A stretch of DNA of 64,000 nucleotides from a virus (Duplodnaviria; Caudoviricetes). The notes under the pieces were generated by a model. It made no database searches. It saw nothing but the letters and a program-made list of their open reading frames with translations, and was not told the DNA's origin. Shown here one piece after another: positions 16,945 through 22,811 of the stretch. Each line of letters starts with the position of its first letter. Within the stretch, counting starts at the first letter, position 1. The DNA lies in IMG/VR virus record IMGVR_UViG_3300035512_000144, positions 1 to 64,000 of that record. One strand, written 5' to 3'. Made by a program: the position numbers and the translations under genes.

Positions 16945-18867
16945 CTACTCCACCTCCTTAACAATCAATTCCTTGTCATTCGTCCTGCGAATCATTATCA
17001 CCTGTCTGTCAGTTTCGGGTATCTTGTCCAAATCAATACTTTCAGTGTCCTCAATAATGATTGGCAGATTCACGCCGTAAGCATTTTGGAAACCTAAGCA
17101 GATATCAATCTCCGCAAGAATGCGGTTGCCGTGATTCAGATTTCTGTAATAACTCTCGCCGTCAATCTTAGGTTCACATACAAGGTTTGTGTTGCCATTG
17201 ATAAGAGTCTCAAATAGGTCAAACTGTATGTACTGGAAAGCACCGTTAATATCCTGTTCAAGCAGCTTGTTTTTAGTCTTTTCAAATTCCGATAAGTAGT
17301 AAAGTATCTGCTCCTGGTCTGCAATCTCCTGCGCAATCTTGCGCTGTTCCGTTTGTAATTCCGCGATCCGTTCATCAATCGCCGTGTTGTTTTCAGATTT
17401 TGCAATCTGCTTTTCAACCGTACTTAACTGTTCGCGGATAGATTCTTCCTCTGACTGCAATTTCTCTCGGATTTCAGAAAATGAATTGCTTTCCTGCAAA
17501 AACTTTTCTTTATCGGCAATCTGCCGATTCAGTTCCGCGATATCTGCACGGTCTGAAAGGTCTACTGACTGCGGAAGTGCTGCTAATTGATTTTCAAGGT
17601 CTGCAATAGCTGTATTAAGCATTTCAAGGCTTTTCTTATGTTCTGCAAGTTCCAGTTCAAGTGTTCTCGATTTTTCTTGTTCAACCTCAATCTCAGATTT
17701 CAGACGCTTTCCTTTTTCTTCAATGGTTTTCAATTCTTCTGCCTTGTGGCTTTCAAATTCTGCCCTTAATTCGTCTTGTTTCTCTTTTGGGTATTCTTGT
17801 CCACAATACGAACAAACAAGGCTGTTTTCGTCAAATTCAAGTCTCTGTGTCTCTTTGTACTTTCCACGTAAATTTGAAATGTTTACTCGGTAACTTTCAA
17901 TTTTGAAAATTGAATTTGAAATGTCATTTTCCGTATCTGAAATTATGTCCTGCGTCTGTTGCAAAAGAAATTTCTTGTTACCAATTAAGCGTTCTATTTC
18001 CTGTCTTGCTTTGATATTTTCCTCATTCGCCTGTCGCACCAAATCGTTGACCTTGAATTTCAGTTCCAGTATTCCGTCACTTGCCTTGTCGATTTCCGCA
18101 AGCTGCGCAGATAAATCGTCCTGCTTTGACTTGACCTCTGCAAGTTGTTCTTTCAGTGCGTTTCGCGCAAGTTCCAATTCTGCAACGTCAATTTCCTCGC
18201 GTTTTTCTTCGTTTTCTTTGATTGCTCCAACGATTTCATTTAATCTTTGCTCATATCCGACAACGTTTCTTGTCTTACTGCCGTGAATTTTGTCATTACA
18301 CGTTTGTTTTATCTGCGCAACTGTTCCAAATTCTAATTCTGACCTTATAGGCTCAAATTCTGGAAACATATCAACAATTTCAGCGTTCTTTCTATTTCCA
18401 AAAACCTTTTCAATCAAATCTCTGCGTTTGGCAGCATCTAATTTGAAAAACGTCTGCGGATTCACGCATGATTCATTTGGAAACATATTTTTTAAATGTT
18501 CCGCATATTCTTTTGGTTTTTGAACAATTCCATTGATATAGCAGCTTGTGACATAACCCTGTGGCTCATTCTTTCGGTTGTATGCCATTCCGTAGGATTT
18601 CTTTAACATAACTCCGTTATCAAGTTCCAGTTCAACTTCTGTTGGCACGTTATCGTCAATAATGTCTTTTCCGTCCTTGTCATGCGGGCGTATGCCTGTG
18701 ATTTCCTTGCCGTTCTCGTCTTTCAGATTAAAAATCCAGTAGATAGCACGCTTTATGGTGCTTTTACCTGTCTCGTTGTGTCCTGCGATTTCTGTCCTAT
18801 CAAACAGGTCTGTTTCCAGTGACCGGTGCTTGCAGAAATTTGTCAGCCTTATGTGTTTGATTTTCAT
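16945..18867 (-). CDS. SMC/Rad50-like AAA ATPase with a long coiled coil
   Basis: GHNETGKST Walker A; central CSYCGQ hook; IIIEDTESID Walker B. Confidence 0.85.
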   Translation of the reverse strand: MKIKHIRLTNFCKHRSLETDLFDRTEIAGHNETGKSTIKRAIYWIFNLKDENGKEITGIRPHDKDGKDIIDDNVPTEVELELDNGVMLKKSYGMAYNRKNEPQGYVTSCYINGIVQKPKEYAEHLKNMFPNESCVNPQTFFKLDAAKRRDLIEKVFGNRKNAEIVDMFPEFEPIRSELEFGTVAQIKQTCNDKIHGSKTRNVVGYEQRLNEIVGAIKENEEKREEIDVAELELARNALKEQLAEVKSKQDDLSAQLAEIDKASDGILELKFKVNDLVRQANEENIKARQEIERLIGNKKFLLQQTQDIISDTENDISNSIFKIESYRVNISNLRGKYKETQRLEFDENSLVCSYCGQEYPKEKQDELRAEFESHKAEELKTIEEKGKRLKSEIEVEQEKSRTLELELAEHKKSLEMLNTAIADLENQLAALPQSVDLSDRADIAELNRQIADKEKFLQESNSFSEIREKLQSEEESIREQLSTVEKQIAKSENNTAIDERIAELQTEQRKIAQEIADQEQILYYLSEFEKTKNKLLEQDINGAFQYIQFDLFETLINGNTNLVCEPKIDGESYYRNLNHGNRILAEIDICLGFQNAYGVNLPIIIEDTESIDLDKIPETDRQVIMIRRTNDKELIVKEVE

Positions 18868-19133
18868 TGACTTTCTCCCTCCTTTTCAATCTCACTCCTA
18901 AACCGCGCATCTAACATAGAAAACAATAATGCGTGCGCTGTTTGGAACATCACATGATTCAGTTCCTTGTCCTGAATGGCGAACATCATGGTAGCCGCCT
19001 GTAAAAATAACGCGCTGTCACCCTTGTTGCGGTTCTGCTTTCTGTCCATCATATAAAGGTCATATATCGGACTGTCTTTGATTCTCTGTGCAAAATCTTC
19101 CATGTTTGTGTTCATTGACTTTTCTCCTTTCAA
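18864..19133 (-). CDS. Hypothetical protein
   Basis: Coupled ORF. Confidence 0.45.
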   Translation of the reverse strand: MKGEKSMNTNMEDFAQRIKDSPIYDLYMMDRKQNRNKGDSALFLQAATMMFAIQDKELNHVMFQTAHALLFSMLDARFRSEIEKEGESQ

Positions 19134-19163
19134 CTTGGACGGTCATTCGCCCCATAAAATCAT

Positions 19164-20639: not shown

Positions 20640-20934
20640 TTTCGATTACCTTGATAATCCGTATGGGTATCGTACAATGGTGGAATGAAGATTGCAGACA
20701 TTGTCGCTCGATATCCTTTATAAATCTTAATGGTCTCATACACACAGAAAAACCACTATGCACCTACTTCGATACCCTTATCATTTCGTATAGGTGTCTA
20801 CCTCTGTATGGTATCTGGCACAATGCAAATACCGTTCGATACCCTTGTGAAATCGTATGGGTCTCATCCACTTTTGTTTTGAACAATACAATATTCTAGT
20901 TCGATACCCTTGTGAAATCGTATGGGTCTCATCC
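20640..20934 (-). CRISPR. Mini CRISPR-like array A: 5 repeats, 4 spacers
   Basis: 36-nt GTTCGATACCCTTGTGAAATCGTATGGGTCTCATCC (+ strand) exact at 20834 and 20899. Degenerate copies (26-27/36) at 20640, 20706 and 20767. Spacers 30/25/31/29 nt. Confidence 0.85.
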
Positions 20935-21074
20935 CTCAAGAAACATCTGTTCTGTTTTTATACCCTTACTTAACAAGGTATATGCGTAGACGGTTTCTAT
21001 CAGCCATATAGACTAATCACTAGACGTTTTCCGCATAAGTTTTGAGTTTTACCTCTTAGGACAATCGTTTGCCC
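20935..21074 (-). ncRNA. tracrRNA/omegaRNA-like scaffold A
   Basis: Homologous to 22675-22811; 5' hairpin GGGCAA-ACGA-TTGTCC; anti-repeat-like segments; starts about 10 nt after the effector stop. Confidence 0.7.
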
Positions 21075-21084
21075 TTCTTCAATT

Positions 21085-22464
21085 TTATTTCAGCGCAAGA
21101 TACATCTCTCTTGCGTATCTCTGCCTATAATCATTTTCCGACCTGTCGATATCTTTTATTTTCAGCTTTACCACAGTACCGCTATCAGCAGATGCTAACT
21201 TTGTTTCTATCAGCGTTACCAACATAGCAGGAGCATTATGACCGACTGAATATCCTGCTTTGCTTTTCTTTTCATTTTCATTCTCAGTCTCTTTCTTCCG
21301 CATTGCCGCCGCTTGAAAGGGATAATCGTTGACCATAATCATATTTCCATGAGACAAAATCTCATTTGCGATCGCGATTCTTTCCAGTTTTCGATTTTCG
21401 GCTTGTACCCGGTGCAAATCTCGCAACTCTGCAACCGCCTTGTGATATCCGTTTGAAAAATTCCATTTCAGCCGATAACGATTACCGTCAAAATAAATGC
21501 CTTTCTTACAAGTGCCATCCTCGTTGAAATTTTCGGGATTCATAGCGCGTCTTGAATTGTCAAGGTACTGTTGTAAGGCTTTTATTTTCGTGTCATAGTA
21601 AATGTCTGTATCTGTATCTTCAAGGCTTATATCCGTAAAGGTTTCACCGTCTGACGTGTAGACCACATGAGACGTATCAATATACATTCCAACCTTGCCT
21701 TTATTGATAGGATTCTTTTCGTTGCCGTCCTTGTCATACTTGGTGACAGGTGCTTTATCAATCGTTATCTGAACGTACCATTTCAATGTTCCACGGACTT
21801 CTTTATTGATAATGCGCACCTGTTTATATGATTCCAAATCAAGCATTTCCAGTTTGTAATAGTCTTTCGGGTCTAACTTCAACGGCATTTTGATTGTCTT
21901 GCCATGTGCCGTACTGTAAACGCAATACAGTTTCCTGCCGTTTGCGTTCCCTCTGACCTTTTCCCAATCATCATCAACAATGCGTATTCCGCTTTTACCC
22001 TGTGAAACCATGGAATACCATTCGCCTTTACGCTTAAACTTTATCTGTCTGCCACTTCCGAAAAAGTAATCATCAAATGCCGCCCACATAGCAGGTGCAA
22101 TCGTGTTTCCTGCGACCTCACTCGGAATATTCATATTGAAATGTTTATAGAAACTCGTTGTGTCTCCGACAAATCCCATCTTGGAAAATCTGTACTCTTT
22201 CATAAGGTCATTCTTCGTCTGACACGCCGCCTTGAAATCAGCGTCTTTCTTTCTCTCCGCAGGCTCCATGTTTTTGTACGCATTAGCGATAACTTCCTTC
22301 GCTTGCTTGTATTCGGGTCTACGTTCCATTTCCCTAAGTTTCTTCAACTCATATCCCAACATGGAATTGTAAATTTGTCGGCAAATCTCAAACCGCTTTA
22401 CAAGTGCGTCTGACTGCCATTTCTCTGTTTTTAGTGGGATTGTGACTACACTCATTGCTCCCAT
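21085..22464 (-). CDS. Nuclease-dead TnpB/Cas12f-like RNA-guided DNA-binding protein
   Basis: Clostridial TnpB-family motifs: TIPLKTEKWQ..RQIYN, LDNSRRAMNPENFNEDGT.KKG, GYSVGHNAPAML. RuvC sites read GMYID, VNDY and REMY. No Zn finger. Confidence 0.85.
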   Translation of the reverse strand: MGAMSVVTIPLKTEKWQSDALVKRFEICRQIYNSMLGYELKKLREMERRPEYKQAKEVIANAYKNMEPAERKKDADFKAACQTKNDLMKEYRFSKMGFVGDTTSFYKHFNMNIPSEVAGNTIAPAMWAAFDDYFFGSGRQIKFKRKGEWYSMVSQGKSGIRIVDDDWEKVRGNANGRKLYCVYSTAHGKTIKMPLKLDPKDYYKLEMLDLESYKQVRIINKEVRGTLKWYVQITIDKAPVTKYDKDGNEKNPINKGKVGMYIDTSHVVYTSDGETFTDISLEDTDTDIYYDTKIKALQQYLDNSRRAMNPENFNEDGTCKKGIYFDGNRYRLKWNFSNGYHKAVAELRDLHRVQAENRKLERIAIANEILSHGNMIMVNDYPFQAAAMRKKETENENEKKSKAGYSVGHNAPAMLVTLIETKLASADSGTVVKLKIKDIDRSENDYRQRYAREMYLALK

Positions 22465-22506
22465 TGTTTTCTCCTTCTTTCATTTACTATCCGAGACGTG
22501 GATGTG

Positions 22507-22674
22507 GCTCGATATCCTTACAAAATAAGATACCTCTCGTACTCCGTCTACAAGCTTATAACATAACTGATAGTTCGATACCCTTGTCAAAAGATATCTT
22601 TCTCGTACAATGGTATGCCATAAATCCGAGTGATACCGGTTCGATACACTTGTGAAAATCTATACCTCTCGCAC
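22507..22674 (-). CRISPR. Mini CRISPR-like array B: 3 repeats, 2 spacers
   Basis: 36-nt repeats at 22507, 22573 and 22639 (period 66) share G(T/C)TCGATA..CTT with array A; both spacers are 30 nt. Confidence 0.75.
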
Positions 22675-22811
22675 CTCAAAGCACGTCTGTTCGATTTCGA
22701 GATATCCAGTTTACAAGGTGCTAGGTAGACGGCTTCTTCCATGCGTATAGCATAGACACTGACCGTTTTCCCATTGCGTTTTGCATTTCTGCTTCGGTCA
22801 ATCGTTTGACC
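22675..22811 (-). ncRNA. tracrRNA/omegaRNA-like scaffold B
   Basis: Collinear blocks shared with scaffold A: CTCAA, TCTGTTC, ACAAGGT, GTAGACGG, CGTTTTCC, GTTTTG, CAATCGTTTG. Perfect hairpin GGTCAA-ACGA-TTGACC. Confidence 0.7.

Follow-up and report, generated by a model that had tools for sequence, protein, structure and literature searches.

Within a 64,000-nucleotide (nt) stretch of viral DNA (hereafter the window; positions 1 to 64,000 of the IMG/VR virus record IMGVR_UViG_3300035512_000144), we found a locus in which a gene for a 459-amino-acid (aa) protein of the TnpB/Cas12 fold is flanked on both sides by a structured RNA scaffold followed by a short CRISPR array (short palindromic repeats that are clustered and regularly interspaced). 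We consider it probable, although far from settled, that the phage carries here a multiplexed CRISPR system of a type V-like kind, lacking adaptation genes, which would bind DNA without cutting it and would silence genes of host defence or of rival elements. The original prediction, drawn from the letters of the DNA only, had proposed a multiplexed RNA-guided repressor or DNA binder, and this proposal gains support from the dead fold of the effector, the covarying scaffolds and the variable arrays, with repression as the presumed outcome.

On the minus strand the order of the elements is scaffold B, 3 repeats, the 459-aa gene, scaffold A and 5 repeats. This doubled scaffold-plus-array layout, already claimed in the original prediction, was confirmed by a repeat finder, by the open reading frame (ORF) and by a covariance model, R1, which was built partly from the window scaffolds and found 12 independent copies in relatives. 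The repeat finder returned a single repeat family, with 8 copies of 36 nt and a period of 61-67 nt, the repeat starts being 66, 61, 67 and 65 nt apart in array A (20640-20934) and 66 and 66 nt apart in array B (22507-22674), and the spacers are 25-31 nt long, mostly 29-31. The conserved 3' end of the repeat was found as first described, and so was the decay of array A away from its scaffold: its two scaffold-proximal repeats are identical and the distal three are 75, 75 and 72% alike. To this picture we can add that each scaffold finishes in a repeat-like segment of its own, from which a conserved linker of 14 nt leads to repeat 1, and that the final repeat of array B adjoins the 5' untranslated region of the effector. 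The features, all on the minus strand, are as follows (MFE, minimum free energy; tracr, trans-activating CRISPR RNA).

22706-22811, scaffold B core, about 106 nt, tracr/omegaRNA-like, with four helices, ending ACCTTGT (R1, 105.8 bits)
22675-22705, repeat-like closing segment of scaffold B (ending ...CGAAC) with the 14-nt linker at 22675-22688 (alignment A3)
22507-22674, array B, with repeats at 22639-22674, 22573-22608 and 22507-22542
22609-22638 and 22543-22572, the two spacers of array B, 30 nt each
21085-22464, effector gene, 459 aa, TnpB/Cas12 fold, with Tyr261, Asn379 and the zinc-finger/RuvC-III part deleted
20966-21074, scaffold A core, starting 11 nt past the stop codon (R1, 113.5 bits)
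20935-20965, repeat-like closing segment of scaffold A with the 14-nt linker at 20935-20948 (MFE fold, alignment A3)
20640-20934, array A, five 36-nt repeats and four spacers, decaying away from the scaffold
20870-20898, 20803-20833, 20742-20766 and 20676-20705, the spacers of array A
20870-20898, spacer A1, scaffold-proximal, between the two identical repeats, matching abiLii
about 19136-19152, remnant of a third unit, first hairpin only (weak R1 match, 18.8 bits, at 19085-19152)

The effector is related to TnpB at the level of both sequence and structure. Pfam gave only a sub-threshold match to HTH_OrfB_IS605, PHROGs assigned phrog_506 'transposase' (4.9e-20), and the NCBIfam profile guided_TnpB (NF040570) matched over profile positions 5-332 of 389 with an E-value of 1.4e-9 and 37.8 bits, a score that, set against the curated cut-off of 100 bits, we take to indicate homology to TnpB and not membership of that family. 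In an AlphaFold2 model made from 35 homologues (predicted local distance difference test score, 89.5), the top Foldseek matches were Cas12m2 (2.3e-12), ISFba1 TnpB, Cas12f, ISDra2 TnpB and dCas12f, with LaTranC at rank 23; sequence searches of solved structures with the active relatives gave only weak matches to 9j09 (E 0.001-0.016). A family alignment of 139 rows shows the RuvC motifs of active relatives as G-x-D-I-G-T / V-E / Q-R-D, and at these columns the clade of the window has a tyrosine (Tyr261), an asparagine (Asn379) and a deletion, the entire zinc-finger/RuvC-III tail being deleted in this clade. The nuclease-dead TnpB/Cas12 fold that had been predicted is thus borne out by the fold matches and the alignment. 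One correction is that the aspartate of the YIDT motif is not the catalytic one but sits two columns off that position; since the catalytic column holds Tyr261, all three RuvC residues are lost, and the effector is, as judged from its sequence, nuclease-dead. Despite this loss the protein is under strong purifying selection, the pairwise ratio of nonsynonymous to synonymous substitution rates (dN/dS) being 0.055-0.074 against the three closest usable relatives. At 90% identity the effector family forms 161 clusters, and at 50% identity it has 1179 representatives (E <= 0.001).

Comparative analysis shows the scaffolds to be genuine structured RNA. An alignment of ten scaffolds, taken from the window and from five related contigs, recovered four helices with compensatory double changes in 18 of the 23 pairs; 93% of the cells at these positions were paired, compared with 28-45% when the partners were slid by 1-3 columns, and the observed covariation was reached in none of 500 shuffles. 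An Rfam scan of the locus gave no match. R1 finds both scaffolds of a 50%-identical homologue (54 and 40 bits) on L001/L002, where the labels L001-L158 stand for contigs with relatives or target sites and G517, used below, is a genome label. It also matches, in active relatives that bear arrays, the stretch separating the gene from its array (32 bits in L048, weaker in L047, L076 and L106), as well as the site immediately 3' of the tnpB of insertion sequence (IS) type in L009 and L055. Because these matches fall at the omegaRNA position of the IS-type genes and in the gene-to-array gap of the active relatives, the scaffold descends from the omegaRNA, and the suggestion that the locus stands at a transition from TnpB to CRISPR is supported by the same matches, in agreement with the published account of TranC systems (10.64898/2026.03.27.714800). 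In a scaffold tree the upstream, B-type copies of four phages group together as a clade (support 95). Scaffold A shares 83-87% identity with the A-type scaffolds of other phages but only 66% with the B scaffold beside it in the window, from which it follows that the duplication is older than these phages and that both copies have been retained. A scaffold in position A, L138:1585-1695, is closest to one in position C, L007:2590-2697 (79%), and this likeness suggests that cassettes move between intergenic positions by recombination.

The way in which scaffolds and repeats could work together is indicated by their ends. All scaffolds end in an invariant ACCTTGT and all repeats hold the complementary ACAAGGGT within their conserved 3' module, whereas the 20 nt at their 5' side differ freely from unit to unit. 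In 9 of the 10 aligned units the scaffold continues into its own copy of the repeat 3' module, ending ...CGAAC, then the linker and repeat 1. In the MFE fold calculated for scaffold A, ACCUUG is paired in cis with this repeat-like copy, and a co-fold of the scaffold core with repeat 1 gives the same pairing in trans; we infer from these folds an omegaRNA whose last hairpin may close either in cis or by means of a repeat-derived CRISPR RNA (crRNA). Both partners of this pairing are invariant. The idea that each scaffold and its array form an orthogonal pair was unsupported, with 3.81 own against 3.48 cross pairs in the variable flank (p 0.14) and with own and cross duplex energies also alike (p 0.22, 0.22 and 0.94), and a universal hairpin inside the repeat was rejected, given that such a hairpin occurs in part of the units, in three different registers, and is missing from the rest. 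The 14-nt linker (20935-20948 and 22675-22688 in the window) is conserved at the same position in L006, L136, L137, L138 and L139, with a consensus of about A-K-A-Y-G-T-n-y-T-T-Y-G-A-G. It occupies the place at which one would look for a first guide, after the ...CGAAC end of the scaffold and ahead of repeat 1, and might serve for processing, act as a truncated fixed guide or mark the point of spacer insertion.

The multi-unit layout is conserved in a large clade of dead relatives. Cassettes both upstream and downstream of the gene were also seen in L006, L136, L138 and L139, as well as in L137, where the downstream unit is decayed, and the doubled layout is present in L001/L002 too, with a different repeat sequence, and in a long-form dead homologue of 29.5% identity from an Agathobacter-genus genome, whose units are 83% identical to one another. 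The two units originally described are not the whole of the arrangement. L006 and L007 own a third unit downstream of the FtsK-like gene, detected by R1 with 77.8 bits (L006:3822-3927) and 78.8 bits (L007:2590-2697), and the window retains the first hairpin of it (about 19152-19136), followed by an 89-aa ORF (18864-19133), at the place where the relatives carry that unit. Relatives have entirely different spacers, even where their proteins are 88% identical, which indicates that the arrays turn over quickly, even though they do so without adaptation genes. The predicted absence of adaptation genes stood in a search of the complete 73.9-kb phage record, where cas1 had no match and cas2 none above the family cut-off; in the remaining 10 kb of that record there is no additional scaffold copy.

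Evidence on what the system may be directed against came from spacer A1. A scan of JGI metagenomes with its first 20 nt returned seven contigs, six of which extend to 21-22 of the 29 nt. The contig L140 matches A1 at 29/29, with flanks unrelated to the repeat, and further sites match at 28/29 in L149-L151 and at 24/29 in L147/L148. The site belongs to a two-gene operon, where it lies on the sense strand of the second gene, and is preceded by the 5' flanks CTTT, CTTG and CTTC. In L140 the first gene of this operon encodes an AbiLi-type AAA ATPase (PADLOC 2e-55) and the second an AbiLii/RloB-like protein, and the full-length copies in L149-L151 were likewise identified by PADLOC as AbiLi (1.1e-55) and AbiLii (1.3e-10), where the pair has a type IIG restriction-modification gene as its neighbour, in the manner of a defence island. 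The 24/29 copy in L147 is on an integrative mobilisable element with an integrase, RepA_N, MobC and a relaxase. The abiLii protein cluster at >=90% identity includes a protein from an Agathobacter metagenome-assembled genome (MAG), and in an Agathobacter-genus genome the AbiL pair recurs with amino-acid identities of 81% and 86.5%; an AbiL-like gene is absent from the phage. Thus, the suggestion that the system works against host genes or rival elements gains sequence support from the 29/29 match of A1 to a defence gene. The element L147:1615-5606 comes from the ENA sample ERZ27317653, the same sample as the dead-homologue contig L001.

A probable second target was found for a relative of the window, when arrays of relatives were searched in 157 Agathobacter-genus genomes. 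The guide after the last repeat of array A in L007 matches 23-24 nt, starting exactly at the repeat junction and with the flank TTC, in an accessory region of an Agathobacter-genus genome. The match falls in a promoter region, being 25-48 nt upstream of an unknown gene's start codon; an Amidoligase_2/GGACT operon lies opposite, and an orphan C5 methylase is adjacent. With an estimated chance expectation of about 0.03 exact 24-mers over all six Agathobacter-genus searches, this is a probable protospacer. The two independent protospacers both have a 5' TTN and both lie on the sense strand, a number too small to define a protospacer-adjacent motif. A 23/25 match between an L139_B spacer and an RluA-type pseudouridine synthase gene was borderline, its flank is not TTN, and it was treated as chance. 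The spacer check asked for by the original prediction gave a match for A1 and left the other five window spacers unmatched. The searches with no result covered exact 20-mers of A1, A2, A3, A4, B1 and B2 in IMG/VR, all window spacers in INPHARED phages, PLSDB plasmids and the related 58-kb phage L006, spacer A2 in JGI metagenomes, and the arrays of L138, L006_B and L137_B in Agathobacter-genus genomes; no convincing protospacer was found in 400 Lachnospiraceae genomes, nor was there a convincing match for the at least 12 spacers of the active relative L051 in its own MAG.

We infer a mechanism composed of operon co-transcription, RNA processing, scaffold:crRNA pairing, DNA binding and repression. 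The cassettes would be transcribed together with the early operon of the phage, and the transcripts would be processed to crRNAs that retain the conserved 3' part of the repeat (...CAAGGGTATCGAAC) and the spacer. The handle of the crRNA could then pair with the invariant ACCUUGU of the scaffold, in the manner of a split omegaRNA or of a tracrRNA:crRNA duplex, and the complex would bind DNA beside a 5' TTN and block transcription as a roadblock. Its presumed targets would be accessory genes of a Lachnospiraceae (Agathobacter-like) host, and the newest spacer of array A would lead it to the second gene of the AbiL pair, with the guide pairing to the template strand. With dCas12a, transcription is blocked best by a guide that pairs to the template strand, as A1 would here. 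Given that A1 matches the second AbiL gene, the most likely role is the multiplexed silencing of host anti-phage defence early in infection, possibly extending to rival mobile elements.

Several points weigh against this interpretation. The promoter and terminator scans of the locus stayed at the level of shuffles or chance, and the scaffold:repeat pairing draws on conserved complementarity, own-versus-cross covariation being absent. There is one strong protospacer for the window and one probable protospacer for a relative, and no more, the remaining five spacers of the window, like about 45 from relatives, being without a match in the databases searched. The A1 site is inside the second gene and not in a promoter. 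Finally, because the AbiL pair is also carried by the integrative mobilisable element L147, the true target could be a rival element.

This last point leads to competition between elements, after the fashion of Cas12m or type IV systems, in which the dead effector would silence essential or early genes of rival plasmids, integrative elements or phages in a shared host and the abiLii match would be incidental. We regard this account as unlikely overall, but as the main alternative, since the AbiL pair with the 24/29 match rides on such an element, the second protospacer also has an accessory, element-like context (the orphan C5 methylase and the Amidoligase_2 operon), Cas12m acts in this way on plasmids and prophages (PMC11656645), and the dead clade itself is found on phages and on Mob_Pre-bearing and resolvase-bearing elements of Lachnospiraceae. 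On the other hand, the 28/29 sites of L149-L151 belong to a chromosomal-looking island with an ABC transporter, the type IIG restriction-modification gene and a sulfite reductase, no spacer matched any IMG/VR, INPHARED or PLSDB record, and the position of the locus in the lytic early operon, past Cro/Ant, fits a takeover of the host better than exclusion by a prophage. It is improbable, in our view, that the effector serves to recruit another activity to its target, for which the FtsK-like translocase and the SbcC-like and RecT genes would be candidates. Dead Cas12 recruiters have precedents in Cas12k transposition and in the dCas12f sigma factor (PMC13472631, PMC11656645), and the order MazG, effector, small ORF, FtsK-like is kept in L006, L007 and L136 as far as their contigs reach; yet more distant members of the dead clade retain their cassettes beside quite different neighbours, no fused or co-varying partner was found, and the fast turnover of the arrays fits targeting in defence or counter-defence.

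Regulation of the phage's own genes, as a switch between lysis and lysogeny or in timing, with the linker as a short fixed guide, seems very improbable to us. The linker is indeed conserved across units and phages, and the autoregulation of cas9 by a long-form tracrRNA, cited in 10.1101/2023.11.30.569447, offers a precedent; however, matches of spacers and linker within the 73.9-kb phage are no better than 11-13 nt, which is chance level, and the spacers are wholly different among phages whose flanking genes are conserved. That the locus is a decaying IS200/IS605 remnant with non-functional relics as flanking repeats would explain the lost RuvC residues, the truncated C-terminus and the lack of an adjacent transposase, but we give this practically no credence. 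A check for the relaxed selection expected of a dying IS, proposed at the outset, showed no relaxation (dN/dS about 0.06); there are hundreds of intact homologues, compensatory changes maintain the RNA structure, the layout is kept down to 29.5% protein identity, and one spacer is an exact match to foreign DNA. The remnant explanation is refuted by the findings on selection and covariation.

The multiplexed silencing that we favour can be compared with several described systems. From the TnpB of IS200/IS605 the effector differs by lacking the D-E-D triad and by scoring below the NF040570 cut-off, and its gene is not part of a mobile IS with defined ends and multiple copies. With TldR (10.1101/2023.11.30.569447, Wiegand et al.; 10.64898/2026.09.22.753285, Xiao et al.) it shares a derivation from TnpB, a mutated RuvC, a truncated C-terminal RuvC/zinc-finger part and a place on temperate phages, as well as an omegaRNA-like scaffold next to the gene and a presumed guided binding that would block transcription. 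TldR has a single fixed guide beside the genes that it regulates (10.1101/2023.11.30.569447), whereas the window has 2-3 scaffold units, each with a CRISPR-type array whose spacers turn over, and its clade has no fixed partner gene throughout and targets that lie outside the element.

The dCas12f-sigmaE systems have a dead Cas12f in which tracr and half repeat are re-fused into an omega-like RNA (PMC13472631), and omegaRNA units are duplicated in some loci to serve several sites, forming omegaRNA arrays (Altae-Tran et al., PMC10691335; PMC13472631). The likeness to the window is that of dead Cas12f/TnpB derivatives with the whole unit duplicated in some loci; the difference is that dCas12f-sigmaE activates through a partner sigma factor, belongs to Bacteroidota and has lost its CRISPR array, whereas the window is without a sigma partner and has true repeat-spacer arrays after each scaffold. 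Generic type V CRISPR-Cas is matched by the window in having an effector of the Cas12/TnpB fold and an adjoining array of variable spacers. Cas12m (type V-M), the top structural match being Cas12m2, is an analogous case of array-guided silencing by binding only, on plasmids and some prophages, and the comparison suggests a similar mode of action. Cas12m, however, is about 600 aa long, keeps its RuvC domain in a non-canonical form and has a single array, and it uses a crRNA without a tracr-like scaffold, whereas each array of the window is preceded by a conserved structured scaffold of 107 nt. No link in sequence between Cas12m and the effector was found, the identity being about 11% in the structural match and a profile search giving UnCas12m4a with an E-value of 0.13.

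TranC systems, as described in 10.64898/2026.03.27.714800, have compact TnpB-like effectors, 3-20 repeats of 32-38 nt and no adaptation genes (citing Jin et al. 2025), a tracr-like RNA between gene and array that arose from a split omega/reRNA, and an occurrence in Oscillospiraceae, Ruminococcaceae and phages; they are active nucleases used in defence. The window resembles them in its short arrays, its lack of cas1, a scaffold homologous to the omegaRNA position and the repeat 3' part at the scaffold end, and its active array-bearing relatives L047-L053 and L076 look TranC-like; compared by description, the clade of the window differs in being dead, without the C-terminal segment and with duplicated cassettes on both sides. 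The Vibrio phage ICP1, as summarised in PMC11656645, carries a CRISPR-Cas that targets the PLE defence island of its host. On this account the two phages are alike in encoding CRISPR with one or more spacers against an anti-phage element of the host, but ICP1 has a complete, cutting type I-F system with adaptation genes, whereas the window has one dead effector protein, lacks an adaptation module and would presumably silence its targets instead of degrading them. The concept is already known from dead type V effectors that silence DNA, such as Cas12m, from TldR and from TranC, and the window differs from each of these. The searchable literature yielded no account of a phage system that is dead, bears arrays and has several cassettes, nor of what such a system targets; Altae-Tran et al. 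(PMC10691335) list omegaRNA arrays and dead V-U groups, and the family of the window may therefore already be catalogued there.

A FastTree phylogeny of 139 proteins (unrooted, with local support values only) split a dead superclade (support 100) from an active clade. The dead superclade contains a short form of about 460 aa, including the window, and a long form of 505-527 aa with substituted residues, and its hosts are phages and mobile elements of Butyrivibrio, Agathobacter and related rumen and gut Firmicutes. The active clade contains proteins of 500-530 aa from Clostridia with downstream arrays of period 66-67, with at least 12 repeats in the array of L051, as well as Bacteroidales proteins with upstream arrays and multi-copy IS-type TnpBs of about 489 aa. 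In one Clostridia MAG (L055-L059) there are five identical IS copies of about 2.16 kb with an active relative of 485 aa, sharp ends, TTAC at the left junction and differing 'guide' DNA past the right end; unlike these, the effector gene is single-copy and stands between the same phage genes in the relatives. In the long-form dead clade (L083, L088, L091 and L158:7398-8618) the C-terminal region is retained and the three RuvC residues are substituted, and the L158 gene has units on both sides (L158:8772-8944 and G517:C5:30892-31153) in its Agathobacter-genus genome, with repeats of the same family as array A of the window.

Other dead relatives showed different arrangements. In two Butyrivibrio isolates a scaffold (L046:4419-4520 and L005:5463-5572) lies on the opposite strand, convergent with the dead gene, so that its 3' end and any guide would read into the gene's own 3' end, and no array is present. 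In Butyrivibrio fibrisolvens (L003:5409-5900) there are two tandem omega-like scaffold units 3' of the dead gene, each made of a scaffold, a guide, one repeat that copies the last hairpin of the scaffold, and a second guide, an arrangement that is intermediate between a single omegaRNA and an array. A Y1 (IS200-type) transposase ORF is found at L001:117-497, about 0.9 kb upstream of the 50%-identical dead homologue with doubled cassettes.

The window covers the greater part of a complete temperate phage of 73.9 kb from the gut or rumen, with a tyrosine integrase at 136-1338, a CI-like repressor on the plus strand and a long minus-strand early operon opened by a Cro-like regulator and an anti-repressor. 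In this operon the order is SSB-like, MazG-like, the locus, a small ORF, the FtsK-like ATPase, SbcC-like and RecT, and the lysis and structural genes occupy 29-60 kb.

Taken further, the data would be compatible with a widespread family of dead TnpB/Cas12 proteins that performs natural multiplexed CRISPR interference (CRISPRi) on host Abi and other defence genes, renews its arrays without Cas1-Cas2, keeps 2-3 paralogous cassettes and represents an independent transition from TnpB to CRISPR, a proposal that we put forward tentatively and consider possible more than probable. The family joins features of TldR-type dead TnpBs, TranC-type splitting of the omegaRNA and Cas12m-type silencing, and in it an intermediate RNA anatomy is still visible, with a scaffold that has its own repeat-like end followed by true repeats. 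A naturally dead, multiplexed binder of 459 aa with a short TTN-like motif would suit compact tools for CRISPRi or epigenome editing. If the proposal is true, phages switch off bacterial immunity genes by means of programmable, non-cutting RNA-guided repressors, and this would be an anti-defence strategy unlike protein inhibitors and unlike the cutting CRISPR of ICP1.

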